Positions 1,194-26,281 of a stretch of 36,485 bases of DNA are shown in pieces; the stretch's first letter is position 1; each line of letters opens with the position of its first letter. The DNA comes from Desulfobacterales bacterium (GTDB lineage: Bacteria; Desulfobacterota; Desulfobacteria; Desulfobacterales; UBA11574), in contig JAUVTO010000002.1 in NCBI GenBank assembly GCA_030601485.1, positions 1 through 36,485 on the forward strand, given 5' to 3'. The position numbers and the translations under genes are program-made. Below the pieces are notes generated by a model, which saw nothing but the letters and a program-made list of their open reading frames with translations, was not told the DNA's origin and searched no databases.

Positions 1194-2179
1194 TTTTTGC
1201 CTGCTTTTTTTTCAACTTTGTTGATGATCCACCGTAAGAGCTTTTTATCATGCTTATAATCGACAACTTCTTTTAGGGCTTCAAACGGAATTTCAGCACG
1301 CGCCATGCTTTTATGGCCGCCTGCAGAGCCGATTTGTCCGAAACTTAGTTTGGCGACTTTTCCTGCATGCTTGCGAAGACCGTCGTTTCTGAAAACAATA
1401 ATAAGCTTTTTACTATATACACCAGAGACAATGCTCCAGTTTACCGAGCTGATTTTCATGAAAAAATCTGCGATAATCACGCAAATGTCAGGATTTACCA
1501 CCGGACCGAGGTAAGCGAACATATGTCCTTTACGGACACGCTTATTATCAAGGGCTATTTTGAAATATTTTAAAAAATCGATCGTCAATTCCGACTGCTC
1601 GATTTTGTTGATAAGATGGAGATTAGAATGACGGTAAAGAAACTGAAATGCCCTGACATCTTCAATTAAGGTTTGACGTACAAAATTGTCCGTATCTGTT
1701 TTAATGGCATAAAACAGGCCGGTGGCCAGTTTGCTGGAAGGTTTAATTTTTGCCGCCCTCAAATATTCGGTCATTATGGTGGCGGTTGCTCCGTATTTAG
1801 GGCGGATGTCCACAAAAGGCGCACTCACACCGGTGTCGGGATGATGATCTATAATGACATGCGGCGGGTACTCTGTAAATACTTCATTATGATTCGGCTG
1901 GGAATCGACAATTACAAAACGGTTGAAGGAATCTTTGACAATGTCTTTAAGTGGGACAAGATCCACACCCAATAGCCGGACCATTGCAATATTGTCCGGA
2001 CGTTTAATGATGTTGATATTGGAAATGGTTACACTGGATACTTTGCGCCAAAGCAATCTTTTGACAGCCATAGCGCTTGCAATTGCATCCGGATCGGCAT
2101 TAATCAGGATAAGAACATTATCTTCGCCTTCAAACGGATCATAAAAACGGCGCAACTTCTCGACAGCAGAGAGTGTCAT
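1190..2179 (-). CDS. DHH/DHHA1 family phosphoesterase (NrnA-like oligoribonuclease/pAp phosphatase)
   Basis: 329-aa ORF with DHH motifs (INADPDAIAS, IIDHHP) and a DHHA1 GGGH-like motif (GSAGGHKSMA). Confidence 0.8.
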   Translation of the reverse strand: MTLSAVEKLRRFYDPFEGEDNVLILINADPDAIASAMAVKRLLWRKVSSVTISNINIIKRPDNIAMVRLLGVDLVPLKDIVKDSFNRFVIVDSQPNHNEVFTEYPPHVIIDHHPDTGVSAPFVDIRPKYGATATIMTEYLRAAKIKPSSKLATGLFYAIKTDTDNFVRQTLIEDVRAFQFLYRHSNLHLINKIEQSELTIDFLKYFKIALDNKRVRKGHMFAYLGPVVNPDICVIIADFFMKISSVNWSIVSGVYSKKLIIVFRNDGLRKHAGKVAKLSFGQIGSAGGHKSMARAEIPFEALKEVVDYKHDKKLLRWIINKVEKKAGKK

Positions 2180-2415
2180 ATGGGTGCTTCTTCCTCAGGT
2201 AGTCTTAAACAAAACGTATTTAACTTACAATATATTACAAAAAAATTTAATGCAATCACACTTTTTTTTCGATTCAGATAAATCAAGAAAAAAAATTGGT
2301 TATCTTCTTGACAGTTACAAATAATATTTGTTATCTGACTACCCTACCATTTTTTAGAGGCATTTATTAAATATCAAAGCAATGCTTCGAATTCAAAGAG
2401 TTTTTATCAGGCAGG

Positions 2416-2700
2416 ATGCCAAAACAAAAAAAAAAGATTTTCGATTATAAAAGAAACCGTGCCTGGACCGAAAATCTTTACATTGTAACGCATCTGGGCC
2501 TTACAATGGCCGGTTGCATCGCTTTGTGTTTTTTTATCGGGCTATACCTTGACAAATGGTTGGGAACAAAGGGGGTTTTCATAAGCATATTTATCATTTT
2601 AGGTGTTATCGGCGGCGCGAACGTGGTATATCGTCAGATTCTCGATATAACTGAACACAAGGAAAATGATAAAATAAATTCCGACAATGGACACTCTTAG
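2416..2700 (+). CDS. AtpZ/ATPase_gene1-family small membrane protein (putative F0F1 accessory subunit)
   Basis: 94 aa with two TM helices. The core GLTMAGCIALCFFIGLYLDKWLGTKGVFISIFIILGVIGGANVVYRQI matches the pattern of small proteins that lead atp operons. It is the first gene of the Fo cluster. Confidence 0.7.
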   Translation: MPKQKKKIFDYKRNRAWTENLYIVTHLGLTMAGCIALCFFIGLYLDKWLGTKGVFISIFIILGVIGGANVVYRQILDITEHKENDKINSDNGHS

Positions 2701-3073
2701 ACAAATACAGAAAAAGTACTGTACCAGAGCTATTTCGGCGGCAATCTTTGCCGGCCTTTTTTTTATCCTTGTCGGTCAAAAACCAATCGGAAAGGGATTG
2801 ATTCTGGGAACTGTTTTCAGCATTATTAATTTTATTCTAATGGGTGAAACTATCCCTATGAAAATGGGTAAAACAAAAAGGAAAACCTACGTGTTTTCCC
2901 TGGGCTCGATTTTTTTCAGATATCTTATTTTAGCAGTGCCCCTGATCACTGCAATAAAACTTGAACAATACAATCTTTTTGCTGTCATTATCGGGATATT
3001 TTTTATCCAGCTTTTCATTCTGGCAGATCACATATTTAACTATTTATCATCTGCCCGTGGAAAACAGATATAG
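2687..3073 (+). CDS. atpI: ATP synthase protein I (AtpI-like)
   Basis: 128-aa polytopic membrane protein located between the atpZ-like gene and atpB. It overlaps the previous gene by 14 nt. Confidence 0.65.
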   Translation: MDTLRQIQKKYCTRAISAAIFAGLFFILVGQKPIGKGLILGTVFSIINFILMGETIPMKMGKTKRKTYVFSLGSIFFRYLILAVPLITAIKLEQYNLFAVIIGIFFIQLFILADHIFNYLSSARGKQI

Positions 3074-3085
3074 GAAGAATGTATT

Positions 3086-3760
3086 ATGGAAGATCTTGGT
3101 AGGATTCACCAACTCATAGTTCATGTTATGGGACGTGATTTGACGTTTAATCTTGAAGTCATTGTGATGACCTGGATCGTCATCACCGCGCTGATTTGCT
3201 TTGGTTTTTTGGCGACCAGAAAAAAGAGTATACTCCCCGGACCAATACAGGTTGTGGGAGAACTTTTTGTAAATTTTCTTTACGGCCTGACCGAAGATGC
3301 TCTGGGTGAGGAACTTTCAAAAAAGTACTCCCCCCTTATATGTGCATTGTTTATGTTTCTTTTACTTTCAAACTGGCTGGGGATCATTCCTCACCTGGAA
3401 GAGCCGACCAAAGATCTCAATACGCCGTTGAGTTTTGGGATCATGGGATTTGTCATCGCCCATCATGCCGGTATCAAGGCCAAGGGAATAAAAAAGTATC
3501 TTAAAGCCTACTGTGAGCCGATGTTTTTTATGGCGCCGTTGAATATAATCGGGGAGTTGGCCAAGGTTGTTTCCATATCTTTTCGTCTCTTTGGCAATAT
3601 TATGGGCGGTGCTATCATCATCCTGGTGGTGTCTTACCTGACCTACAGCATTATTACACCACCTTTTCTGAATGCGTTTTTCGGGGCATTCGTTGGAACT
3701 ATTCAGGCGTTTGTGTTTACCATGCTAACGGTTGTATATATTGCAGTGCAGGTAAATTAG
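3086..3760 (+). CDS. atpB: F-type ATP synthase Fo subunit a
   Basis: 224 aa with the conserved stator Arg context (ISFRLFGNIMGG) and a C-terminal helix (QAFVFTMLTVVYI). Confidence 0.9.
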   Translation: MEDLGRIHQLIVHVMGRDLTFNLEVIVMTWIVITALICFGFLATRKKSILPGPIQVVGELFVNFLYGLTEDALGEELSKKYSPLICALFMFLLLSNWLGIIPHLEEPTKDLNTPLSFGIMGFVIAHHAGIKAKGIKKYLKAYCEPMFFMAPLNIIGELAKVVSISFRLFGNIMGGAIIILVVSYLTYSIITPPFLNAFFGAFVGTIQAFVFTMLTVVYIAVQVN

Positions 3761-3763
3761 CTT

Positions 3764-4735
3764 ATGGCATACGATATTCAAACATGGGTAAGTGTAGCAG
3801 CGTTTAGTGCCGGCGGAATTACCATGGGATTCGGCGCCATAGGAGCGGCGATAGGTGAAGGATATACCGCCGCAAGCGCTAATGAGGCCATCGGCCGTAA
3901 CCCCGAACAGTCGGGTGATATTTTCAAGTCCATGCTGGTAGGGCAGGCCATTGCCGAATCTGCTGCTATTTTTGCGCTGGTCATTGCAATGATGCTTTTG
4001 TTTACGAATTTTACATCACATATTTTAATGATACCTGTTTTATTGAGCGCTGGTTTGTGTATGGGGCTGGGGGCCATCGGTGCCGGCGTAGGTGCGGGAT
4101 ATCCTGCGGCAGCCGCCTGTAGAGGCATGGCCAGGCAGCCGTCCATGAGTGGGCGCTTAACTACCAACATGCTGATCGGTTCAGCGGTCTGCCAGACCCC
4201 TGCGATCTTTGCGTTGGTGGTGTCGTTTATTTTAATGTTTACAGATTTTTCATCAAGTCCGGTTTCACCGACATGGGCGGCGATTCTGGGTGCAGGGATT
4301 TCGTCCGGGTTTGGAGCCATCGGCTCAGGCTTAGGCGGTGGTATGGTTGCGGAAGCCAGTTGTGATGGGATCGCCCGGCAGCCCTTAACTGTAACATCGG
4401 TGACCAATGTCATGCTTCTCGGCCAGGCAGTCACCCAGACCACCGCCATATATGCACTTTTAGTAAGCTTTATCTTGATGTTCAAATCCTTTCCGGCAAC
4501 CGATTTATTAGCCCCTCCCATGGCTTTGCTGGCGGCCGGCTTGTGTATGGGTATCGGTGCCATCGGCCCGGCAATCGGTGAAGGCTTTGCCGGTCGCAGC
4601 GCCGTCGACGGGATTGCACGCAACGAAAAACACATTGCGGATTTGACAAGATTGATGCTGGTGGGGCAGGCGGTGGCCGAGTCAACGGGGATTTATTCCC
4701 TGGTCATTGCTCTAATCCTGATTTTTGTTATTTGA
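3764..4735 (+). CDS. Fused four-hairpin (about 8 TM) F-type ATP synthase c subunit
   Basis: 323 aa made of four tandem c-subunit units. Each has a Gly-rich helix 1 (GxGAIGxxxGxG), a polar loop (GRNPEQ / ARQPSM / ARQPLT / ARNEKH) and a helix 2. The helix-2 carboxylate is present in units 1 and 4 (E65, E306) and is Gln in units 2 and 3 (Q144, Q225). The ATG lies 3 nt after the atpB stop. Confidence 0.85.
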   Translation: MAYDIQTWVSVAAFSAGGITMGFGAIGAAIGEGYTAASANEAIGRNPEQSGDIFKSMLVGQAIAESAAIFALVIAMMLLFTNFTSHILMIPVLLSAGLCMGLGAIGAGVGAGYPAAAACRGMARQPSMSGRLTTNMLIGSAVCQTPAIFALVVSFILMFTDFSSSPVSPTWAAILGAGISSGFGAIGSGLGGGMVAEASCDGIARQPLTVTSVTNVMLLGQAVTQTTAIYALLVSFILMFKSFPATDLLAPPMALLAAGLCMGIGAIGPAIGEGFAGRSAVDGIARNEKHIADLTRLMLVGQAVAESTGIYSLVIALILIFVI

Positions 4736-4790
4736 TGGTAACGTTTCTTGAAAAATAAAATCTAAACCCAAATTATATAGGAGGATTAAA

Positions 4791-5039
4791 ATGGCAATTG
4801 AAGGTGCGGATCTGATAAGAGCATCTGCTTATCTAGGAGCAGGTCTTGCTATGGGACTCGGGGCAATCGGTCCTGGAGTAGGTGAAGGTATGGCAGCCGC
4901 AAAAGCATGTGAAGCAATCGGTAAGAATCCTAAAGAGGCGGGCCTGTTGACCCGAACGATGCTGGTGGGACAGGCGGTTTCCGAGTCTACCGGAATTTAT
5001 TCACTGGTGATTGCATTACTGCTTTTATTCGTTGTTTAA
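4791..5039 (+). CDS. atpE: F-type ATP synthase Fo subunit c (single hairpin)
   Basis: 82 aa with a strong SD (AGGAGG at 4779-4784). Motifs are [10 protein letters not shown], loop GKNPKE, and [18 protein letters not shown] (E65-S66-T67...Y70). Confidence 0.92.
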
Positions 5040-5072
5040 TTTCTATAGCATTGTTTTAATGGAAGATAGCTT

Positions 5073-5528
5073 ATGGAAATAGTCAGCAACATAGCTCTGA
5101 TAACTATCAATGGGACTTTATTTCATCAACTGATAGCTTTTCTGATATTTGTGTTTATCATGAATCGTATTATGTTTCGTCCCCTGCAGAAAGTTATGGG
5201 CGAAAGAGACAGTTTTATTGAGAAAATAAAGCTGGAAACCGTTGATGCAGCCAAAGAACTTGAGCACCTGACCGATGAGCTGAAAGAGAGGGAATCTGCA
5301 GTTCGAACTAAGGCCATGGAAGTTAGGCGTGAGCTCGAAGCAGGGGGAAGCCAGGAAGCTACCGAGATTTTTACTTCTGCCAACAAAGAGATTGAGACAA
5401 TAAAAGAAAATGCCGAAAATGAAATTAACGCTCGAATCTTAGAAGCAAGAAAGCATCTCCAAAAAGAATCCGAAACCCTGGTTGTAAATATTATGGAAAA
5501 TTTGCTGAATCGGAGACTGGCTCCATGA
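5073..5528 (+). CDS. atpF2: F-type ATP synthase Fo subunit b' (b-family)
   Basis: 151 aa with one N-terminal TM helix followed by a long charged helix (ATP-synt_B pattern). A 4-nt ATGA overlap joins it to the next b gene. Confidence 0.75.
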   Translation: MEIVSNIALITINGTLFHQLIAFLIFVFIMNRIMFRPLQKVMGERDSFIEKIKLETVDAAKELEHLTDELKERESAVRTKAMEVRRELEAGGSQEATEIFTSANKEIETIKENAENEINARILEARKHLQKESETLVVNIMENLLNRRLAP

Positions 5529-6112
5529 AAAGAGTTAATGGAATAACTTTGCTGTGCTTTTGTATCACAGCAGGTGTCCTGAGCCTTCATTTCCTCGGAC
5601 ACGAAGCCTTTGCAGCAGAAAAATCAAGTAGTTGGCGGCCAACATATGATCTGATTTTAAGGTGGATCAACTTTGGGATCATTGTTTTTGTGTTGAATAA
5701 ATATGCAAAAGCTCCACTAATGAATTTCCTGCGGGGTCAAAAAGAAAAGTTGGCAAAGGAAATCAAAAAGCTGGATGATAAAAAGGAAAATGTTGCCGCA
5801 AATATCAAAGAAACCCAAAAAGTCATTGATGTAAGTGAAGTTCGTTTTGCTGAACTTAAAGAGCGAATTGTTAAACAAGGACAAAGGAAAAAACAGGAAA
5901 TTATCGAATCTGCTCATCAGCAAAGTAAAATGATGCTAAAAAATGCCAGACGAAGGATAGGCAGCCAATTTGACCAGGCAAAAAGTGCTTTCAGGGCGGA
6001 ATTGATAGACACAGCAATCGAATTGGCCATGCAAAGACTTCCCCAAGAGATTATCGATGAAGACCACGATAAATTCTTAGATCAATACCTGGCCAGCAAA
6101 TTATCAGACTAA
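5525..6112 (+). CDS. atpF: F-type ATP synthase Fo subunit b
   Basis: 195 aa with an N-terminal hydrophobic segment, a second TM (WINFGIIVFVLNKY) and then a Lys/Glu-rich coiled helix. It is the last gene of the cluster, and no delta or F1 genes follow. Confidence 0.75.
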   Translation: MKRVNGITLLCFCITAGVLSLHFLGHEAFAAEKSSSWRPTYDLILRWINFGIIVFVLNKYAKAPLMNFLRGQKEKLAKEIKKLDDKKENVAANIKETQKVIDVSEVRFAELKERIVKQGQRKKQEIIESAHQQSKMMLKNARRRIGSQFDQAKSAFRAELIDTAIELAMQRLPQEIIDEDHDKFLDQYLASKLSD

Positions 6113-6144
6113 CGTTCTGTTATAAAAATCTTATAAAAGATCTC

Positions 6145-6173
6145 TTGACAACCTAAAAGCTTAGATTTAAAAT
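6145..6173 (+). promoter_or_regulatory. Sigma-70-type promoter candidate for the thi operon
   Basis: TTGACA (6145-6150), 17 nt, then TAAAAT (6168-6173), ending about 8 nt before the TPP riboswitch P1 stem. Confidence 0.6.
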
Positions 6174-6181
6174 AGTATTAT

Positions 6182-6270
6182 CTCGTTAGGGGTGTTGGTA
6201 TCATCTGAGAGTCCGGGAAAGGACAACCCTTAACCACCTGATCAGGGTAATACCTGCGAAGGGAAACGGG
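6182..6270 (+). promoter_or_regulatory. TPP (THI-box) riboswitch aptamer
   Basis: Contains the canonical blocks aGGGGUG...CUGAGA...ACCCUU..ACCUGAUCaGGGUAAUACCuGCGaAGGGA. P1 can form between 6182-6187 and 6265-6270. It lies upstream of thiC. Confidence 0.9.
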
Positions 6271-6294
6271 CCTGCGATTCGGATTTGATTGTCC

Positions 6295-6332
6295 ATGCTG
6301 TTTTCCTATTCGGGGAAACAGCATTTTTTTTT
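6295..6332 (+). terminator. Intrinsic terminator (riboswitch expression platform)
   Basis: A 12-bp stem pairs ATGCTGTTTTCC (6295-6306) with GGGAAACAGCAT (6313-6324), followed by a 9-T run through 6332. Confidence 0.85.
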
Positions 6333-6519
6333 GGAATAAAATTTGTTTACTTACCGATCGCCGTCTTTTTGCATACCGATCAGATAACGCCCCTATTTAA
6401 ACCGGGTTTCTCACTGCTCAGAGCAATACAGGAACACGGCATTTTTCAGGCCGAAGACGCAGTTACTTGGCCTTCAGATCCCATAAAATGGGAATAAACG
6501 CAACGAACGGAGGTATAAA

Positions 6520-7797
6520 ATGACACAGATTGAAGCGGCCCGAAGCAATCGGATTACAGATGCCATGCATCAGGTTGCCCAAAAAGAGGGGCTTACCGCC
6601 GAACAGGTGCGCGAAAAAGTGGCCGCCGGCGTGCTGGTAATTCCCAAAAACCGCAACCGGGATTTCGAAGCGCGCGGCATCGGCCAGGGCTTGAAAACCA
6701 AGGTGAATGCCAACATCGGCACTTCCCCGAGCCACCATGACCTGAAAGAAGAACTGACCAAGCTCGACACGGCTGTTGCGGCCGGTGTGGATGCGGTGAT
6801 GGATCTTTCCACCGGTGGAAATCTCGACCTCATATTGGAGACCATATTGAAACGCTCCCCGGTCATGGTCGGCACCGTTCCGATCTATAAAGTCGTCAGC
6901 AAGTTGATGGCAAATAACAAAACTCCGGTACAGATGACCGCGGACGACCTTATGGAGGAAATCGAGATGCAAGCCGAGCTGGGAGTTGATTTCATAACGG
7001 TGCATTGCGGTATTACCCGACAAAGCTTAAGCGCTCTTAAGGGGTGCAATCGGATTATGGGCATGGTGTCGCGCGGCGGCAGCTTTATCGCTGAGTGGAT
7101 CACGGCCAATAAAAAGGAAAACCCCCTGTTTTCCCAATATGATCGTCTGTTGGAAATCTGCCGGCAACATGATGTTACCCTGTCTTTGGGGGATGGACTT
7201 CGACCCGGGGCAATCCATGATGCCGAAGATCGTGCCCAAATTTCCGAGCTTTTAATTTTGGGCGAGCTGACGCGCCGCGCCCGCAAGGCCGGTGTCCAGG
7301 TGATGGTCGAAGGTCCCGGCCATGTTCCGCTGGGACGTATCGCCGGGGATGTACAATTACAAAAGCGCCTTTGTGACAACGCTCCTTATTACGTGCTGGG
7401 GCCTTTGCCCACCGACATTGCCCCGGGCTACGATCATCTGGTAGGCGCCATCGGCGGGGCGGTGGCTGCTGCCAGCGGTGTGGATTTCTTATGTTATCTG
7501 ACACCTGCCGAACACTTGCATCTGCCCACGGTCCAGGATGTCCATGACGGCGTCATGGCCACGCGGATTGCGGCCCATATCGGCGATCTGGAAAAAGGGT
7601 TGCCCGGGGCCGAGGACTGGGATAGGAGGATGTCCATGGCGCGACGGGAATTCGACTGGGAAACCATGTATAACCAGGCCATCGACCCGGAATTGGCCCG
7701 CAAGCGCCGTATGCAGACCGAAGATCATGATCGGGATGTCTGCACCATGTGCGGTGATCTTTGCGCGATTAAAACCTTTGATCGTATCATACTTTAA
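6520..7797 (+). CDS. thiC: Phosphomethylpyrimidine synthase
   Basis: 425 aa, short anaerobe-type ThiC, with the C-terminal CxxCxxxxC cluster motif (CTMCGDLC). SD GGAGG lies upstream of the ATG. Confidence 0.92.
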   Translation: MTQIEAARSNRITDAMHQVAQKEGLTAEQVREKVAAGVLVIPKNRNRDFEARGIGQGLKTKVNANIGTSPSHHDLKEELTKLDTAVAAGVDAVMDLSTGGNLDLILETILKRSPVMVGTVPIYKVVSKLMANNKTPVQMTADDLMEEIEMQAELGVDFITVHCGITRQSLSALKGCNRIMGMVSRGGSFIAEWITANKKENPLFSQYDRLLEICRQHDVTLSLGDGLRPGAIHDAEDRAQISELLILGELTRRARKAGVQVMVEGPGHVPLGRIAGDVQLQKRLCDNAPYYVLGPLPTDIAPGYDHLVGAIGGAVAAASGVDFLCYLTPAEHLHLPTVQDVHDGVMATRIAAHIGDLEKGLPGAEDWDRRMSMARREFDWETMYNQAIDPELARKRRMQTEDHDRDVCTMCGDLCAIKTFDRIIL

Positions 7798-19925: not shown

Positions 19926-22019
19926 TTAAGGATGTCCCAAATCATTACAGTCGGAGGAGGCAGATTGAAGGACCAGTGCCGTGCGGGTGGGAAGATATAG
20001 GCTGAGCAGATTACATTGCCGGTCCATTGAAGTGTCCAACAGGGTCAGATGATGTTGATCCGGGTGTAAACGGTTGTGACCCCCATATTCCGGCGCATCG
20101 CTGTTGAAAATCATACGGTATTTTCCGGGCGGCGCTTCGAAGCGATAATCCGAATACGAGTGTTCGGGATGAAAGTTGAAGATGAATAGAAGTCCTGCTC
20201 TTTCAAATATAATAATTTTATTGTCCGAGTGCTCGTAAACAAGGCGTATTTCCATAGATTCCAGCAGTTTATAATCCCCGGATAAAGATATCATGTCTCG
20301 ATCAAAACGGGCGAGGAATTGATACTTCAGGCTTTCGTCATCCACCAGATGCCATTGGCGCCGGGCATATCTATAAGACCAGTTGTTTCCTTCCCGCGGA
20401 AAGTCGATCCACTCCGGATGCCCGAATTCATTACCCATGAAATTGAGATAGCCATTGCCGGCCGTGGCCAGGGTGATGAGCCGAATCATTTTATGCAGAG
20501 CCATTCCGCGTGCCACGGTATGGTTATCATCACCCACCTGCATGTGATCATACATATCCGCATCAATTAAACGGAAAAAAATCGTCTTATCGCCCACCAG
20601 GGCCTGGTCGTGGGACTCGGTGTAACTGATGGTTTTTTCATCCCGTCTCCGGTTGGTCAATTCAGACCAAAGGTGCCCCATGTGCCATTTTTCATCCGGC
20701 GTATCTTTGACAAGTCGTATCCAGTTGTCGGGCACTCCCATGGCGAAACGATAATCAAACCCCATGCCGCCGGATGAAACCGGAACGGCCAACCCGGGCA
20801 TTCCACTGATATCCTCGGCTATGGTAACCGCATCAGGGCGCACATCATGGATAACTTTATTTGCAAGGGTCAGATAGATAAGGGCATCTTCGTCCACGTT
20901 GTCGCCAAAGTAGTGGTCATAGGAAGTAAATGCTTTTTCCAAGCCGTGATCCATGTAAAGCATACTGGTCACCCCGTCAAACCGAAAACCGTCCAATTTA
21001 TATTCATCCAGCCAGAAACGGCAGTTGGAAAGAAGAAAATGAAGTACCTGGTGTTTTTCGTAGTCAAAACACCTGGAATCCCAGGCTTCGTGAATACCCC
21101 GTGGTCCTTCATGAAAGTATTGATACAGTGTGCCGTCGAATCTGCTCAATCCCTCCACCTCATTGGAAACCCCGTGTGAATGAACCAGGTCTATAATCAC
21201 CCTCAGACCGGAAGCATGAGCGGTGTCGATAAGCTCTTTCAGCTCCTCCGGTGTTCCGAACCGGGACGAAGCAGCAAAAAAGCTCGAAACCTGGTAGCCG
21301 AAAGAACCGTAGTAAGGATGCTCCTGAATCGCCATTAATTGCAGTGTATTGTAGCCCGTCGCAACAATACGCGGAAGGATTTGTGTGGTAAATTCTCCAT
21401 AAGAGCCGATTTTCTCCTCTTCCTGGGCCATACCCACATGGGCTTCGTAAACAAATATCGGGTCCGAGGGAAACTGAAAATCCATACATTTCCAGTGATA
21501 AGGATCTGGCGGGAACCAGACCTGGGCATTAAAAATCAGCGTATCAGGGTCCTGAACAACGCGACGGGAATAGGCAGGGATACGATCGCCTTCACTACCG
21601 GGCCAGTGGATACGGAGTCGATAATGATCGCCGTGTTTCAATTTATCTTGAGACAAACGAATTTCCCAATGACCATCTTGGGTGATCCGGTGCAGGGCGA
21701 AGTCTTTTTTCTCTCGCCAGTTCGTCATATCGCCGATCAAGTAGATCCGGGTGGCATTGGGCGCCCACTCACGAAAAACCCATTCACCGTTTCGGAAATG
21801 CATTCCGAAATATTCATGGCCGGCGGCGAATTCCGCCAGGCTCTTTTTGCCCTGGGTCAGGCGCGATTCTGTTTCCATTGTTTTCAGCAGTCGCCGGCGA
21901 ATGGTTTTCTCATATGGCGTCAGGTAGGAGTCTCGGGATAAAAAACGCTTGAGTATGGTATTGATATGATTGTCTTGACCCGAACTTTTCGGATCACCTG
22001 AGGTTTCAAACATAATCAA
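19926..22019 (-). CDS. glgB: 1,4-alpha-glucan branching enzyme, eukaryote-like GH13 type
   Basis: 697 aa. GH13 regions are DLVHSH, GFRFDGVTSMLY, IAEDISGMP and YTESHDQALVGDKT. The last three closely resemble the signatures I recall for eukaryotic GBE1-type (GH13_8) enzymes. Confidence 0.85.
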   Translation of the reverse strand: MIMFETSGDPKSSGQDNHINTILKRFLSRDSYLTPYEKTIRRRLLKTMETESRLTQGKKSLAEFAAGHEYFGMHFRNGEWVFREWAPNATRIYLIGDMTNWREKKDFALHRITQDGHWEIRLSQDKLKHGDHYRLRIHWPGSEGDRIPAYSRRVVQDPDTLIFNAQVWFPPDPYHWKCMDFQFPSDPIFVYEAHVGMAQEEEKIGSYGEFTTQILPRIVATGYNTLQLMAIQEHPYYGSFGYQVSSFFAASSRFGTPEELKELIDTAHASGLRVIIDLVHSHGVSNEVEGLSRFDGTLYQYFHEGPRGIHEAWDSRCFDYEKHQVLHFLLSNCRFWLDEYKLDGFRFDGVTSMLYMDHGLEKAFTSYDHYFGDNVDEDALIYLTLANKVIHDVRPDAVTIAEDISGMPGLAVPVSSGGMGFDYRFAMGVPDNWIRLVKDTPDEKWHMGHLWSELTNRRRDEKTISYTESHDQALVGDKTIFFRLIDADMYDHMQVGDDNHTVARGMALHKMIRLITLATAGNGYLNFMGNEFGHPEWIDFPREGNNWSYRYARRQWHLVDDESLKYQFLARFDRDMISLSGDYKLLESMEIRLVYEHSDNKIIIFERAGLLFIFNFHPEHSYSDYRFEAPPGKYRMIFNSDAPEYGGHNRLHPDQHHLTLLDTSMDRQCNLLSLYLPTRTALVLQSASSDCNDLGHP

Positions 22020-22051
22020 TCTTTTCTTGGTTTGTTTAGGTTTGCTTTGCT

Positions 22052-23581
22052 TCAGCTATCCGTCGGTTTGTTCACAATCAGCGGCCGCCGCAGCATCTTC
22101 TCATAAAGCTCGATATACTGTCGAGCTGTTTCGGCATGGGTAAATTTGGCGGCACTTTCGGTCATGACCCGTTTGATTTGCTTTGCCTTTATCCTGTCGG
22201 GAAGATTATAAAAGTTCATGGCCTGGTTGACAGCCCAGAAAAGCCCATTGGCACCAAAATTCTTAAACAGGAAGCCATTGCCGGAATTGTTTTCAACATC
22301 CAGATCACTAATCGTATCATGGATCCCGCCGGTATCATGGGCTACAGGAAGACTTCCGTAAATCGGGGCTATCATTTGCGGAAGGCCGCACGGTTCAAAA
22401 CTAGACGGCATCAGGATAAAATCCGAAGCCCCGTAAGCCTGATGTTCCAGCCCGTTGTCAAAATCGCAAAGTGCTACGCGTTTCTGAAATCCGTGATGAT
22501 TCACAATGTCTCTGAATACCATTTGATAATCACCATTGGCGACAAAGACGACCTGAAGATTCTGGTCCCAGTATTTCGAAATCACCTTGTAAAATATTTT
22601 GTCTAACAACTGGCATCCCTTCTGAATCGGATCAAGCCGGGATGGCCAGAAGAAGACGGGTGCTTTTTCGTCTTTAATTAATCCTAATTTTTCTTGCAAA
22701 AACAGCTTGTTTGCTCGTTTGCCCAATAAAAAGTCTTCCGGACCGTAGTTTTGCTTGAGATGTTTATCTGCACAAGGATTAAAGGAAGGGTCCGGCGCAT
22801 TCAGTATTCCAACGGCACAGCCGGCATGATATTTATTGGCCAATTCCCGTTGTATGGGATGTTCGACAAAACCATGCCTCCCATTGACGACTTCCAGCAG
22901 GAATGTCGGGCTGACAATATTCACAAAATGAGCGGCAAAAATTCCACTGGTGAGCAAATCTACGGGATTGGTATTCCGTATGTCTTCATAATTCGTGGCC
23001 ATATTTTCATAATATAAATTTTGCCAAAAATAGGCGGCATCGATACCCCTATCCTCCATATAGGCCAGTGTTGTCTTTATCGTGTGCACATTGTGAATGG
23101 TAAAAAGGCATGGAATTTCCATTTGCCTGGCCATCGCCGGAATGATACCGGTCATCCAATCATTGCAATGAATCAAATCCGGTTGGATCTGGGGGACGAT
23201 GTGATTGATCACCTCACGTTGAAAAGCCAGGGCGAGTTTAATATTGTCTTCTCCGTAGGAAGAATAAACACGGTTGATGTAATAAAAGGCCCTGTCTTCC
23301 GCCAGATGGATGCGATCATCAGGCATTTTGCGCTGAATTTTATTGAGTTCTTTTTTTAAAACAGGGGCCAACCCGTTACTGAAGATGGAACGGTAGTCCG
23401 GAATGGCCACGTGCACGTCGGCTCCCTGTTCAAACAGGGCACTGATCAGTGCTGCCGAGACGTCGGCAAGCCCCCCTGCTTTGGCGGTAAAAAAAGAGGC
23501 CATACCTCCCATACGGTCCGGCAAATACGTTACTTCCGGAGTTACAACGAGAATGCGGGGATTAATCTGTGGATGTATCAT
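22052..23581 (-). CDS. glgA: Glycogen/starch synthase (GT5)
   Basis: 509 aa with the N-terminal KxGGL motif (KAGGLADV) and the C-terminal EPCGLxQ motif (FEPCGLPQM). Confidence 0.88.
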   Translation of the reverse strand: MIHPQINPRILVVTPEVTYLPDRMGGMASFFTAKAGGLADVSAALISALFEQGADVHVAIPDYRSIFSNGLAPVLKKELNKIQRKMPDDRIHLAEDRAFYYINRVYSSYGEDNIKLALAFQREVINHIVPQIQPDLIHCNDWMTGIIPAMARQMEIPCLFTIHNVHTIKTTLAYMEDRGIDAAYFWQNLYYENMATNYEDIRNTNPVDLLTSGIFAAHFVNIVSPTFLLEVVNGRHGFVEHPIQRELANKYHAGCAVGILNAPDPSFNPCADKHLKQNYGPEDFLLGKRANKLFLQEKLGLIKDEKAPVFFWPSRLDPIQKGCQLLDKIFYKVISKYWDQNLQVVFVANGDYQMVFRDIVNHHGFQKRVALCDFDNGLEHQAYGASDFILMPSSFEPCGLPQMIAPIYGSLPVAHDTGGIHDTISDLDVENNSGNGFLFKNFGANGLFWAVNQAMNFYNLPDRIKAKQIKRVMTESAAKFTHAETARQYIELYEKMLRRPLIVNKPTDS

Positions 23582-23660
23582 GGACAGCTCCTATATCGGA
23601 TAAACCGGAACCGAAGAGGATTTAAAATTAAATATTTAAAATTTCCAATCATCAATCCTT

Positions 23661-26216
23661 CTACGCCCATGTAATAAGTCCGGGGGCAAACCTGATCCGG
23701 TCATCTCCCCTGGGTATAACCCTGACAGTGAAACCGTATCGGCCTGAATCGCCGCAGATTATGGTGCATTCGTAAAGATACTCGCCGTCTCCACGGTTTT
23801 CTTTTACAGCCATGTTTTCAGAATGACTGTCAGCGATGCTGTCCACAGTTTTCAAGGCCCCGTAATAGAGTTCCACTTTTATCTCATCAGGACGGAGTTC
23901 CCCCAGGTTAACAACCGCTGTTACAGCAAAGCTTTCTCCCACCCGAAACGGGCCTTCAGCTTTTCTCACAGGATGCTCAATCCTGATATTTTTCCACAGG
24001 GTTCTGAGTCGTTTATACTGAGCGGAAAGAATTACGGCTTCTTTGGCGTTATTTGCAGTCAGGTGTGCAAAGTTTTTTGCGGCGGGCAAATAAAATTTCT
24101 TTTCATATTTGCCTACCATCATACGGGCGCAAAAATGCTGCATCGCCATCTTCATCGATTCTTTCATCATTTTGAGCCACCGGCCCGGCACGTCTCCATT
24201 CTTTCTTTCATAAAAACAGGGAATAACGTTGTTTTCCAGCACATTATAAAGGGCCTGACTCTCCACGGAATCCTGGTAGGCGGCATCAGCATATTCCTCT
24301 CCGTTTCCGATCCGCCAGCCTCTTCCCTCAGCATATCCTTCACACCACCATCCGTCCAGGATACTTACATTTAAAACTCCGTTTGCGGCTGCTTTTATAC
24401 CGGACGTACCGCAAGCCTCAAAGGGCCGTCTTGGAGTGTTGAGCCACACATCCGCTCCCTGAACCAGGTGCCTTGCGATACTGATATCGTAGTCTTCTAA
24501 AAAGGCGATTCGATGGCGAACACTCGAACTGCTGGCAAACCGGATAAGACGTTTGATCAGTTCCTTACCTTCATTGTCCTTGGGGTGGGCTTTTCCTGCG
24601 AAGATAAACTGAACCGGATGTTTCTTGGAATTAATCATTGCCTCAAGGCGCTCCGGGTCTTTAAGCAAAAGATCGGCCCGTTTGTAAGTTGCAAATCGAC
24701 GGGCAAAAGCGATGGTCAATATATCCTGGTCAAGTACCGATTCAGCATCTTTCATCATTGCTTTGGGGGCATTACGGCGCCGGTATTGCTTTATCATCAG
24801 AGCTCGACAATTACGAATAAGACGGCTTCGACTCATTTCGCGGGCACGCCACAATTCCTCATCATAAATATCGTCGATACGTTTGGCGATTTCCGGATTC
24901 CACATGTTCAGATGCCAATCCGGTCCAAGATAGCGTTCAAACAGCAGGGCGTTCTCAATGGAAATCCACGAGGAGATATGTACTCCGTTGGTGACATGGA
25001 TGATGGGAACCTCATCTTCCGGCCTGCCGGGCCAGACATGGGACCACATGCGTCTGGCCACCTTGCCGTGCAATTCGCTGACGCCGTTGCAGTACTGAGA
25101 CATCCGCAATCCCAGAATGAACATGGAAAGGGGGGAATCCGAACCGGATTCCATGGGTTGTCCCCACGATACAATCTCGTCAACGTTTACCCCCAGTCGC
25201 TTAGACAAAGAACTAAGATACGGTTTTACAAGGTCCACGGGAAACTCATCGTGCCCTGCTGCCACCGGTGTATGGGTAGTAAAGACCGTGGTTCGTGAAA
25301 CGATCTCCTTTGCCGTCTCAAGATTTACGTTATAAGAGGAAATCGTTCGGGCAAGCCGCTCCAGTGTGGCAAAAGCGCAATGACCTTCATTCATGTGGCA
25401 CACGGTGGGATGGATTCCCATGGCTTCAAGAGTACGCATTCCGCCGATTCCCAGCAGTACCTCCTGGGCCAGCCGGGTCTTTGGATTTCCGGCATACAGA
25501 CGAGAGGTTATTGCCCGAATTTCCGGGGGATTCTCCGGCAAATTGGTATCAAGAAGATAAAGAGGAATACGCCCCACCATGATCTTCCAGACAACGGCCC
25601 GGATTTCGCCCTCAGGTCCGTTGACTGAAATGCTTACCTCATTTCCTGAACGATCCTTTGCCCGTTTCACAGGCAGGTGAAAAAGATCGGTTTCCGGAAA
25701 TTCCTCCTGCTGCCAACCCTCCTGATCCAGAAACTGGTGAAAAAATCCCTGCCGGTAGAGAAGCCCTACCCCTATTATGGGAAGTGCAAGGTCGGAAGCC
25801 GCCTTTAAGTGATCACCGGCAAGGACTCCGAGACCTCCGGCAAACAGGGGAACACTTTCATGAATTCCGAACTCCATGGAAAAATATCCGATAGTTCCGT
25901 CTTTCCCGTAGGAAGATTCGCTTGGATCCACAGGGGTTAAAACCTCGCCCACAAAACTTTCTTTCACCCGCTGCTGATGAGCCAGAAAGCTTTCGTCTTT
26001 TGACAGTTCTTCCAGTTGTTTCTGGGGAATTAAGGTTAAAAATACGATGGGATTGCGCCCGGACGCTTCCCAGAGCCGGGGACTTATGCGACGAAAGAGT
26101 TCAATGGCATCCAGATGCCAGCACCACCAAAGGTTGCGTGCCAGAACCTGGAGAAAAGAAAGGGATTCCGGAATTGCAGGAAACACCTGAAATGTTTGCA
26201 AATAACTCATATTCAT
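23661..26216 (-). CDS. glgP: Alpha-glucan phosphorylase (GT35, long maltodextrin/glycogen phosphorylase type)
   Basis: 851 aa with GGLGVLAGDHLK and the PLP-Lys block EACGTSGIKAAANG. Confidence 0.88.
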   Translation of the reverse strand: MNMSYLQTFQVFPAIPESLSFLQVLARNLWWCWHLDAIELFRRISPRLWEASGRNPIVFLTLIPQKQLEELSKDESFLAHQQRVKESFVGEVLTPVDPSESSYGKDGTIGYFSMEFGIHESVPLFAGGLGVLAGDHLKAASDLALPIIGVGLLYRQGFFHQFLDQEGWQQEEFPETDLFHLPVKRAKDRSGNEVSISVNGPEGEIRAVVWKIMVGRIPLYLLDTNLPENPPEIRAITSRLYAGNPKTRLAQEVLLGIGGMRTLEAMGIHPTVCHMNEGHCAFATLERLARTISSYNVNLETAKEIVSRTTVFTTHTPVAAGHDEFPVDLVKPYLSSLSKRLGVNVDEIVSWGQPMESGSDSPLSMFILGLRMSQYCNGVSELHGKVARRMWSHVWPGRPEDEVPIIHVTNGVHISSWISIENALLFERYLGPDWHLNMWNPEIAKRIDDIYDEELWRAREMSRSRLIRNCRALMIKQYRRRNAPKAMMKDAESVLDQDILTIAFARRFATYKRADLLLKDPERLEAMINSKKHPVQFIFAGKAHPKDNEGKELIKRLIRFASSSSVRHRIAFLEDYDISIARHLVQGADVWLNTPRRPFEACGTSGIKAAANGVLNVSILDGWWCEGYAEGRGWRIGNGEEYADAAYQDSVESQALYNVLENNVIPCFYERKNGDVPGRWLKMMKESMKMAMQHFCARMMVGKYEKKFYLPAAKNFAHLTANNAKEAVILSAQYKRLRTLWKNIRIEHPVRKAEGPFRVGESFAVTAVVNLGELRPDEIKVELYYGALKTVDSIADSHSENMAVKENRGDGEYLYECTIICGDSGRYGFTVRVIPRGDDRIRFAPGLITWA

Positions 26217-26226
26217 TTATCCTTTA

Positions 26227-26275
26227 TCATTGATTATTGATCATTGGTCAACCACTCAACTACTCAACTATTACC
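26227..26275. repeat. Short simple-repeat block (TGATTAT/TGATCAT units plus YAACYACT octamers)
   Basis: atcattgattattgatcattgg followed by tcaaccactcaactactcaactattacc. It is related to the blocks at 32910-32993 and 33021-33062. Confidence 0.7.
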
Positions 26276-26281
26276 AAATAG

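Follow-up and report, generated by a model that had tools for sequence, protein, structure and literature searches.

The Fo operon analysed here encodes, directly after atpB, a single protein (c4) in which four F-type c-subunit hairpins are fused. The helix-2 carboxylate is present in hairpins 1 and 4 (E65 and E306), while Gln occupies this position in hairpins 2 and 3 (Q144 and Q225). The gene lies in a window of 36,485 nucleotides, which is the whole stretch of DNA under study. The initial annotation of this window had described four fused c hairpins with ion sites kept only in the first and the fourth. In the domain-count check, the PF00137 match was resolved into four separate stretches (Pfam; E 6.2e-64, 212.6 bits), and all eight named residues and their codons were found to be correct (Table 1). 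Judged from its sequence, c4 is probably a rotor subunit of a Na+-coupled F1Fo enzyme, present in low copy, and probably once, in a ring mixed with the ordinary 82-aa c subunit.

The c4 gene and its operon

The gene order of the F-type Fo operon is atpZ-atpI-atpB-c4-c-b'-b, so that c4 is flanked by F-type stator genes, with PF00119 directly upstream and PF00430 twice downstream. The atpB translation contains the RLFGN motif with the essential Arg, which reads SISFRLFGNIMGG. An atpZ-like gene was also identified at the head of the operon in loci L070, L071, L075, L076 and L077. Walker motifs of the alpha and beta subunits were used to look for F1 genes, and none was found in the window or in any of 76 loci. 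In a scan of positions 2100-6600, no terminator was observed in the 55-nt gap between c4 and the one-hairpin c gene, and promoter-like sites were not above chance. The two c genes adjoin each other within one operon in all loci reaching that far.

Table 1. Features of the Fo operon around c4, with codons and their positions for the helix-1 and helix-2 site residues
Feature	Position	Strand	Domain or residues
atpZ/gene-1-like small membrane protein, first operon gene	2416..2700	+	PF09527 (ATPase_gene1), E 1.5e-14
atpI, ATP synthase protein I, assembly factor	2687..3073	+	PF03899, E 2.2e-09
atpB, F-type subunit a (stator, ion half-channels)	3086..3760	+	PF00119, E 1.3e-50, full length
AGGT, weakly SD-like, within the final codons of atpB and 10 nt upstream of the c4 ATG	3750..3753	+	
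c4, four-hairpin F-type c subunit, 323 aa	3764..4735	+	PF00137 x4
c4 hairpin 1, active head	3764..4012 (aa 1-83)	+	E32 (GAA, 3857-3859), E65 (GAA, 3956-3958)
c4 hairpin 2, silent	4013..4249 (aa 84-162)	+	A111 (GCG, 4094-4096), Q144 (CAG, 4193-4195)
c4 hairpin 3, silent	4250..4492 (aa 163-243)	+	G192 (GGT, 4337-4339), Q225 (CAG, 4436-4438)
c4 hairpin 4, active tail	4493..4735 (aa 244-323 + stop)	+	E273 (GAA, 4580-4582), E306 (GAG, 4679-4681)
AGGAGG, a strong Shine-Dalgarno sequence for the one-hairpin c gene, spaced 6 nt from its ATG	4779..4784	+	
atpE, ordinary one-hairpin c subunit, 82 aa	4791..5039	+	PF00137, E 3.7e-19
atpF' (subunit b')	5073..5528	+	PF00430, E 1.9e-18
atpF (subunit b), last Fo operon gene	5525..6112	+	PF00430, E 2.9e-14
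TPP riboswitch, start of the next unit	6178-6281		

The c4 reading frame is open throughout, and its 323-aa product compares with ~70-90 aa for the usual single-hairpin c. The AlphaFold2 model, based on a 40-sequence alignment (pLDDT 95.4, pTM 0.89), displayed eight long helices arranged as four hairpins, the topology that had been expected from the sequence. A loop Arg (R45, R124, R205, R286) and a Gly-rich helix 1 are conserved across all four hairpins, and the unit most similar to the 82-aa c subunit is hairpin 4 (61% protein identity). Identity among the four units amounts to 38-56% in protein and only 56-65% in DNA, which rules out a collapsed or expanded repeat.

Two other assignments were rejected. 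A V/A-type proteolipid (K/c) is ruled out by the K models, all of which scored below their cut-offs (101 bits for NCBIfam NF004913, cut-off 211), and by the neighbouring F-type a and b genes. N-type ATPases have the gene order beta-epsilon-Q-R-a-c-b-alpha-gamma. This type is ruled out by the absence of F1 genes from the operon and by the scores of TIGR03322 against the 82-aa c (66 bits, cut-off 130.85) and of TIGR03306 against subunit a (121.8 bits, cut-off 302.1).

Conservation and hairpin number

An intact c4 orthologue was identified in the same slot in 62 species-level genomes, nearly all of them Desulfobacterales and including the cultured Desulfosarcina variabilis, whose c4 gene belongs to locus L021 (NZ_CP159846.1). 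These orthologues measure 323-324 aa (323-325 aa in the protein databases) and keep the same order of units. Q144 and Q225 were invariant in 40 c4 orthologues; the orthologue alignment (A2) also exhibited invariant E32, E65 and S66 in hairpin 1 and an invariant Q144-T145-P146 in hairpin 2. Every c4 hairpin is under purifying selection, with dN/dS values of 0.07-0.13 across the 62 intact orthologues (0.13 in hairpin 2 and 0.07 in hairpin 3).

This conservation bears on the reading of the ORF as an artefact or a decaying gene, whether a misassembled c array, a read-through of separate genes or a pseudogene. Split frames were indeed observed in the multi-hairpin region of loci L065 and L066; because atpB is broken there in the same way, the splits point to indel errors of long-read assemblies. 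With the ORF intact in 62 independent genomes, the units so diverged in DNA and dN/dS at ~0.08, an assembly artefact or pseudogene is ruled out for practical purposes. The initial annotation had likewise argued against an assembly repeat, and its structural reading as a whole is strengthened by this conservation, by the selection on every hairpin and by the neighbour-ligand pattern described below.

As a single four-hairpin protein c4 is real, but it was found to be one member of a series. The same operon slot holds versions with 3, 4, 5 and 6 hairpins, in most of which the first hairpin alone is active. Four-hairpin orthologues are present in Desulfobacterales as anticipated, but the E/Q/Q/E pattern is not general: many retain one site (E-Q-Q-Q), and the longer relatives include E-Q-Q-Q-Q and E-Q-Q-Q-Q-Q patterns. 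The count of silent hairpins varies freely, from 1 to 5, between close relatives that share the slot, and the extra hairpins appear as duplications of the hairpin-2 type in an unsupported neighbour-joining (NJ) tree of hairpins. A separate family of ~320-aa four-hairpin proteins, located after atpB with no adjacent one-hairpin c, was also observed (L073/L074).

Such freedom in the number of silent hairpins would be expected if the ion count were not tightly selected, and it is compatible with a mainly structural or assembly role, in which a pre-formed four-hairpin arc nucleates the ring or fixes its size or curvature. The two assembly-type genes of the operon (atpZ-like and atpI) and the growth of the series by hairpin-2-type duplication also favour this role. 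We nevertheless regard it as unlikely, and no less so that the two lost sites are a tolerated side effect instead of a selected function. Neither the loop Arg nor the Gln of the silent positions varies, and the silent hairpins have dN/dS values as low as those of the active ones, so that both kinds appear to face the same surfaces (stator, F1). A structural role would, moreover, be compatible with a mixed ring, as the subunit would still sit in the ring and still change its ion count.

Ion sites and the predicted mixed ring

In the c11 ring of F. nucleatum (PDB 3ZK1), Na+ is coordinated by E32, V63, E65, S66, T67 and Y70. The product of atpE has the same six residues at the same numbering, and thus a complete two-carboxylate Na+ motif, and both carboxylates also occur in c4 hairpins 1 and 4. 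According to the supplement of ProAD (PMC11738941), residues 66/67/70 of one hairpin serve the site of the next hairpin. The partner residues of c4 differ among its hairpins. Hairpin 1 has I63, S66, A67 and F70, which are degenerate at 67 and 70, and hairpin 2 has V142, T145, P146 and F149. Hairpin 3 keeps V223, T226, T227 and Y230, and by the preceding-hairpin rule these residues would complete the Na+ site of hairpin 4, where E273/E306 and the preceding T226-T227-x-x-Y230 form the multi-hairpin arrangement described in ProAD. Hairpin 4 also has V304, S307, T308 and Y311. By the same rule, the site of hairpin 1 (E32/E65) is predicted to depend on the preceding neighbour in the ring.

The positions of Tyr70 across 102 representative mixed proteins match this neighbour-ligand rule, at the level of sequence. 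Residue 70 is Tyr in 91 of the 102 last hairpins, active or not, and Phe, Leu or Ile in 98 of the 102 first hairpins. Across all representatives, an active hairpin i is strongly associated with Tyr70 in hairpin i-1 (odds ratio 22, p 1.6e-09); the association is driven by all-Glu proteins with many hairpins and is weak in the 102 mixed proteins (p 0.08). Because of this weakness, the Tyr70 argument is built on the last-versus-first position together with the published rule. In favour of a mixed ring, residue 32 changes jointly in the head hairpin and the one-hairpin c (Q/Q) in loci L050, L051, L055 and L076. Locus L077, with V32 in the head hairpin and E32 in the one-hairpin c, counts against a mixed ring. 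In one sub-clade (L024, L026, L028-L032 and L067), the active tail is preceded by QTPL, and the partner rule is therefore not universal.

We infer the incorporation of c4 into a ring, its copy number, the ring size, the ion specificity and the energetic consequence as follows. Several copies of the 82-aa c subunit would assemble with c4 into one ring, as A. woodii builds in its c1 subunit, and the four c4 hairpins would fill four neighbouring positions. The preceding one-hairpin c would complete the hairpin 1 site with its V63/S66/T67/Y70 face, and hairpin 3 the hairpin 4 site with its four partner residues; hairpin 4, with its V304/S307/T308/Y311 face, would do the same for the next one-hairpin c in the ring. 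Hairpins 2 and 3, which have a neutral Gln and no helix-1 ligand and should therefore bind and move no ion, would simply pass the stator arginine. Each turn would then use as many Na+ as there are hairpins, minus two, and the Na+/ATP ratio would fall accordingly. With 11 hairpins, the number in the closest solved relatives, the ring would carry 9 sites and require 3.0 instead of 3.67 Na+/ATP.

The earlier proposal of a substoichiometric subunit in such a hybrid ring, with a lowered ion/ATP ratio, is plausible and agrees with the translation signals. The atpB stop codon occupies positions 3758-3760 and c4 starts 3 nt later, a gap that suggests translational coupling of c4 to atpB. The initial annotation had assigned no Shine-Dalgarno sequence to c4. 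A weak AGGT does exist, conserved in most orthologous loci, but it does contrast with the AGGAGG in front of the one-hairpin c gene. In the 60 loci compared, the multi-hairpin gene directly follows atpB and is preceded by AGGT or AGGTGA at most, with a CAGGT(A/G)AA context and a stop-to-start gap of ~2-3 nt in nearly all upstream sequences; the one-hairpin c gene has AGGAGG or AAGGAGG at 4-6 nt, an optimal spacing, in nearly all loci. The contrast fits an a-like output (~1 per complex) of the multi-hairpin gene and a c-like output (many) of the one-hairpin gene, with Shine-Dalgarno strength being a weak proxy for stoichiometry.

Further considerations stand against the mixed ring. In a ring of 11 hairpins, the pair of neighbouring silent ones would create a sector of ~98 degrees that lacks a coupling ion, and this sector would be far larger in the five- and six-hairpin relatives; how ion-driven torque would bridge such a gap is not obvious. 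Furthermore, rings of c4 alone would account for the neighbour-ligand pattern equally well, since hairpin 1 is active too. Three copies, for instance, would give 12 hairpins, 6 sites and 2 Na+/ATP, with both head and tail active and the tail keeping the full S-T-x-x-Y face, so that head-to-tail completion of the sites would be possible. The L073/L074 family suggests that four-hairpin-only rings may exist elsewhere. We consider a c4 homo-oligomer in this operon rather improbable. The c4 and one-hairpin c genes are adjacent in one operon, with no separate regulation seen in the window, and the known precedent, A. woodii, has a mixed ring. The E-Q-Q-Q, E-Q-Q-Q-Q and E-Q-Q-Q-Q-Q orthologues would provide only 2-3 sites per homo-oligomeric ring, which falls below the limit of 2.6 ions/ATP quoted for synthesis at 60 kJ/mol and 210 mV. 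Equally improbable, in our view, are the corollaries of such a ring, namely two enzyme populations per cell or a switch between a high-ratio and a low-ratio rotor, and, with a similarly small chance, its use chiefly for ATP-driven Na+ pumping, or for synthesis when the sodium-motive force is high.

Significance and comparison with known rotor subunits

The ion/ATP ratio, which is the basic gear in chemiosmotic energy conservation, is determined by the number of ion sites in the c-ring. To our knowledge, A. woodii has the only natural F-type enzyme in which a rotor position is silent, namely one hairpin in eleven. The initial annotation knew of no described four-hairpin F-type c subunit. In agreement, the full-text literature searched, which did not extend to one relevant review, yielded no account of an F-type c subunit that has more than two hairpins, nor of a natural four-to-six-hairpin c with silent units. 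ProAD (PMC11738941) refers to 'two or more hairpin domains' in general and presents logos for one and two hairpins only. We put at somewhat less than an even chance the possibility that these proteins form an undescribed class of F-type rotor subunit in Desulfobacterales and at least one further lineage, with 3-6 hairpins, ion sites on the first or on the first and last hairpins only, and an uninterrupted silent stretch two to five hairpins long, which corresponds to ~100-200 degrees of an 11-hairpin ring.

If so, the Fo motor would carry rotation across a large ion-free arc, and the ion/ATP gear would be tuned stepwise by duplication of silent hairpins, down to ~2 Na+/ATP. A conserved family in which two to five silent hairpins lie side by side would challenge current views of how Fo produces torque stepwise, and a natural series of one to five silent hairpins would serve for tests of elastic Fo-F1 coupling. 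It would also bear on energy conservation near the thermodynamic limit in abundant marine sulfate reducers. The question is directly testable, because the cultured Desulfosarcina variabilis has the gene and the A. woodii enzyme can be expressed heterologously.

The proposed likeness to A. woodii c1 was borne out, as c1 is the best PDB match of c4 by both sequence (4bem_J, E 3.8e-25) and fold (E 5.8e-07), followed by the Na+ c subunits of I. tartaricus, F. nucleatum and A. woodii c2. The atpE1 gene of A. woodii and C. aceticum is preceded by atpB and followed by the one-hairpin c gene or genes (PMC7911925), and c4 occupies the same slot of an F-type operon. Both proteins have an active first hairpin and a later change from Glu to Gln (hairpin 2 of c1 reads AVAQTTGIY), and Na+ coupling is common to both enzymes, being predicted from sequence for that of c4. 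The F/V-hybrid ring of A. woodii contains 9 one-hairpin c subunits and 1 c1. However, c1 has two hairpins with one site and one silent hairpin, whereas c4 has four hairpins with two sites and two adjacent silent hairpins, and its relatives have up to five consecutive silent ones. The Na+ motif also differs, with the two-carboxylate E32/E65 in c4 and Q...ET in c1, as does the lineage (Desulfobacterales for c4, Firmicutes for c1), and the Fo operon of c4 is separate from F1 genes, unlike that of A. woodii. In the hairpin tree, an unsupported NJ tree in which c1 is represented by hairpin 2 alone, this hairpin grouped with the I. tartaricus c and the one-hairpin c subunits and not with the silent hairpins of the c4 family. 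We take this as no more than a lead towards a separate origin.

Beyond the shared Na+ residues, the F. nucleatum rotor differs from c4 in that it is built of a one-hairpin subunit only, with all 11 sites occupied. The archaeal A-type c/K subunits likewise arose by duplication and fusion of hairpins, with sites lost in some cases and kept in others. The subunit of Methanocaldococcus jannaschii is triplicated, and that of Methanopyrus kandleri has 13 hairpins with all sites kept. These proteins belong to A/V-type enzymes with other stator subunits, in contrast to c4 in its F-type Fo. We know of no report of an archaeal multi-hairpin c/K that has several silent hairpins in a row within an F-type Fo.

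The fold of Enterococcus hirae NtpK (2BL2) matches c4 over two hairpins, with a TM-score on the target of ~0.8. V-type proteolipids (NtpK and the eukaryotic c/c'/c'') have one site per two hairpins, with the ligands split between neighbouring hairpins. In V-type rings silent and active hairpins alternate regularly, whereas the silent ones are contiguous in c4, and V/A-type subunits are absent from the c4 operon. Laboratory fusions of E. coli and Bacillus PS3 c subunits demonstrate that linked F-type hairpins assemble into working rings; those fusions are artificial, whereas c4 is natural.

Architecture of the four-hairpin gene and its operon

The gene for c4, the four-hairpin F-type c subunit, is an uninterrupted reading frame for 323 aa that starts 3 nt downstream of the atpB stop codon TAG. 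Four consecutive c-subunit units had been proposed from the sequence, and the Pfam model PF00137 (ATP-synt_C) matched four separate stretches of the protein (E 6.2e-64). The carboxylates and codons named in the initial annotation were all correct (E32/E65 in unit 1, E273/E306 in unit 4), as were the non-acidic positions (A111/Q144 in unit 2, G192/Q225 in unit 3). Hairpins with Glu at the helix-2 site are termed active and those with Gln silent, giving the order E-Q-Q-E from the first hairpin (head) to the last (tail). Alignment of the four units with the 82-aa one-hairpin c subunit encoded downstream revealed 16 invariant columns, including the Gly-rich helix 1 and the helix-2 M-L-x-G motif. 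Since the units of c4 share only 56–65% identity in DNA and 38–56% in protein, a collapsed or expanded repeat is excluded, as had been argued before; unit 4 is nearest to the one-hairpin c (61% identity). The expected eight-helix topology was recovered in an AlphaFold2 model calculated from a 40-sequence alignment (pLDDT 95.4, pTM 0.89), where eight long helices form four hairpins connected by short periplasmic linkers. A 285-aa antisense reading frame inside c4 is rich in Pro, Ala and Gly, as expected opposite a Gly/Ala-rich coding sequence, and shows no sign of being a real gene.

The operon is Fo-only and ends before a TPP riboswitch, which is followed by thiC. The remainder of the window carries thiamine, glycogen, pantothenate and methyl-cycle genes. 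No F1 genes were found in the window, and alpha/beta Walker motifs were present in none of 76 related loci within about 8 kb, so Fo and F1 are encoded apart in the c4 lineage. Assignment to the V/A type was rejected because all V-type K models scored under their cut-offs, and assignment to the N type because the N-type c and a models both did so.

Features of the Fo operon and its surroundings in the window
Feature	Position	Strand	Evidence or content
atpZ-like	2416-2700	+	PF09527
atpI	2687-3073	+	PF03899
atpB, subunit a	3086-3760	+	PF00119
c4	3764-4735	+	PF00137 x4
Antisense reading frame	3778-4635	-	285 aa
One-hairpin c	4791-5039	+	82 aa
b'	5073-5528	+	PF00430
b	5525-6112	+	PF00430
Promoter-like site	6145-6173		near-consensus, upstream of TPP riboswitch
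TPP riboswitch	6178-6281		RF00059, 59.7 bits; upstream of thiC and thiamine biosynthesis cluster
Terminator-like hairpin	6295-6324		with T-run, downstream of TPP riboswitch
thiC	6520-7797
Glycogen metabolism cluster	19926-30586	-	GH13 with CBM48, glycogen/starch synthase, alpha-glucan phosphorylase with DUF3417, 1434-aa protein with alpha-amylase and GDE_N/GDE_C debranching domains

In the window and nearly all of 60 loci, about 2–3 nt separate the atpB stop from the start of the multi-hairpin gene, which has at most AGGT or AGGTGA, 8–10 nt upstream and inside atpB. The one-hairpin c gene follows a spacer of 24–471 nt and has AGGAGG or AAGGAGG at 4–6 nt. As indirect evidence, these signals fit a multi-hairpin gene translationally coupled to the single-copy subunit a and a many-copy c translated strongly and independently.

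Conservation and relatives of the four-hairpin gene

Sampling one genome per species, we identified 69 loci with relatives of c4, nearly all in Desulfobacterales MAGs (Desulfosarcinaceae, Desulfococcaceae, Desulfatibacillum and Ca. Desulfatibia). A cultured carrier is Desulfosarcina variabilis str. Montpellier (L021, 76% identity). The order atpB, four-hairpin gene (323–324 aa) and one-hairpin c was observed in every locus reaching far enough, and E-Q-Q-E, whose conservation the initial annotation had left to be checked, is the rule in the window's clade. A second four-hairpin variant, found in about thirty loci, is E-Q-Q-Q with a tail hairpin N...VQSTY. Compared pairwise with 61 orthologues, the window gene has dN/dS values of 0.085, 0.132, 0.069 and 0.081 in hairpins 1, 2, 3 and 4; because these values are similar, the silent hairpins are constrained like the active ones. 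Little or no variation was seen among 40 orthologues at Q144-T145-P146, at Q225-T226-T227...Y230, at the two Glu pairs or at the Arg in the loop of each hairpin.

Both atpB and the four-hairpin gene are split over several reading frames in two long-read MAG contigs (L065 7323-9360, L066 7318-9433), which most likely reflects indel errors and not split genes; the Thermoguttaceae label of L066 may come from wrong binning. The possibility that c4 is an artefact or pseudogene is refuted by the divergence of its units, the intact conserved orthologues, the dN/dS values and the indel explanation of these breaks.

The initial annotation saw only one member of a hairpin-number series. Among the 120 best protein matches, those of 323–325 aa are E-Q-Q-E, those of 402–405 aa have five hairpins (mostly E-Q-Q-Q-Q) and those of 481–490 aa have six (mostly E-Q-Q-Q-Q-Q). 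Three-, five- and six-hairpin versions occupy the same operon slot as c4, and one six-hairpin locus has the window's upstream neighbours too. In a single-hairpin tree (distance-based neighbour-joining, without support values), hairpins grouped by position as head, hairpin-2 type, penultimate and tail. The additional units of the five- and six-hairpin proteins clustered with the hairpin-2 type, which suggests that silent hairpins were added via internal duplication. One 487-aa protein (P0060) combines E-Q-Q-Q-Q with a sixth unit carrying the full EVESTY motif and resembles a fusion of a five-hairpin subunit with the one-hairpin c gene downstream.

When 1.84 billion cluster representatives were searched exhaustively, 85 clusters had E below 1e-30, and proteins with 2, 3, 4, 5, 7, 12 and 15 hairpins were among the best 150 representatives. 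About 60 of these 150 belong to a separate four-hairpin family of about 320 aa with the pattern E-Q-E-D/E, 28–32% identical to the window's c4. Its gene directly follows an F-type a gene at L073 (6270-7966) and L074 (5102-6798), where neither a one-hairpin c nor a b gene adjoins it, and the protein may serve as the only rotor subunit in a further F-type variant not yet described. Very long all-Glu multi-hairpin proteins were also observed (P0146, P0142, P0199), of 1139 aa with 15 hairpins and names pointing to Promethearchaeota and Hodarchaeota MAGs, of 968 aa with 12, and of 524 aa with 7 from Candidatus Gracilibacteria.

Predicted ion sites

The 82-aa c subunit carries E32, V63, E65, S66, T67 and Y70, the six residues that bind Na+ in the F. 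nucleatum c11 ring, and because of this motif the enzyme is predicted to be Na+-coupled. In the Na+ site of the F. nucleatum c11 ring, S66 and V63 are contributed by the adjacent subunit. For multi-hairpin subunits, the ProAD rule assigns Na+ binding to [Q/E]...E when the previous hairpin has [S/T]-[S/T/Q]-x-x-Y (PMC11738941). By this rule, site 4 of c4 (E273/E306 with T226-T227-x-x-Y230 of hairpin 3) is predicted to be complete. Sites 2 and 3, which have neither the carboxylate nor the helix-1 ligand and lack most of the partner residues, count as dead under the same rule. The geometry of the E. hirae K-ring matches the previous-hairpin rule. Site 1 (E32/E65) would use the face of whatever precedes hairpin 1 in the ring and would be complete next to a one-hairpin c or another tail hairpin. 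The tail face S307-T308-x-x-Y311 would in turn complete the site of the next subunit.

Of 102 representative proteins in which active hairpins are mixed with silent ones, 91 have Tyr at residue 70 of the last hairpin, which is itself silent in 37 of these. In the first hairpin this residue is Phe, Leu or Ile in 98 of the 102, although 86 first hairpins are active. This general pattern is expected if hairpins lie side by side in sequence order with the tail abutting an active hairpin. An exception to the preceding-hairpin ligand rule is an E-Q-Q-E sub-clade (L024, L026, L028-L032, L067) in which hairpin 3 reads GIQTPL, lacking Thr67 and Tyr70, before an active tail; its fourth site may be weakened or of H+ type. 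Residue 32 is Gln in both the head hairpin and the one-hairpin c at three four-hairpin loci (L050, L051, L055) and one six-hairpin locus (L076), hinting at co-evolution of the two; at L077 the head has Val and the one-hairpin c Glu.

Proposed place of c4 in the rotor and comparison with known systems

The closest characterised system is the Acetobacterium woodii enzyme, where the gene for c1, a two-hairpin, one-site subunit, sits between atpB and the one-hairpin c genes (PMC7911925). Its ring contains one c1 and nine one-hairpin subunits (11 hairpins). A. woodii c1 (4bem_J) is the PDB chain that matches c4 best in both sequence and fold; in the fold search, solved chains cover at most half of the c4 model. 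As c1 is both the nearest precedent and the best match, we propose that c4 would fill four neighbouring places in a mixed Na+ ring. Rings consisting solely of c4 are possible, as head and tail could complete one another's sites, but less likely, given that the one-hairpin c gene is invariably paired with c4. The data also agree with c4 serving mainly for structure or nucleation, and the ion count could change in that case as well.

In a mixed ring, c4 would remove two ion sites per turn. The nearest relatives with a solved ring are I. tartaricus and F. nucleatum (c11 in both) and A. woodii, whose ring has 11 hairpins. With 11 hairpins, the ratio would fall from 3.67 to 3.0 Na+/ATP with c4, and to 2.67 (E-Q-Q-Q), 2.33 (five-hairpin) or 2.0 (six-hairpin), figures that are illustrative only because ring size is assumed. 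The contiguous silent arc of c4 would then span about 98 degrees. Neutral Gln can move past the stator Arg and into the lipid with no ion bound, but the mechanistic difficulty is that no ion-driven step would rectify motion across the arc. We estimate that rotation across it would require the stalks to store elastic energy, or the phosphorylation potential to be low, and that crossing would be easier in the ATP-driven direction. A 2022 Muller-laboratory paper places the synthesis limit at 2.6 ions/ATP (60 kJ/mol, 210 mV) and reports that enzymes with V-type c subunits still make ATP at low driving force.

The same paper gives archaeal hairpin numbers of 1, 2, 3 or 13 and lists A. woodii as the sole F-type hybrid; a 2008 survey lists duplications for V/A-type enzymes only. 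A 2026 Desulfatiglandales paper reports two to four atpE copies and does not remark on how many hairpins they encode, and public annotations name the c4 protein just 'ATP synthase F0 subunit C'. The literature searched describes no F-type c subunit of three or more hairpins, although an earlier listing among hybrid-rotor surveys is possible; the initial annotation likewise knew of no four-hairpin case. The hybrid or multi-hairpin rotor as such is known already, and the interest of c4 lies in the contiguous silent sector and the graded 3-to-6-hairpin series.
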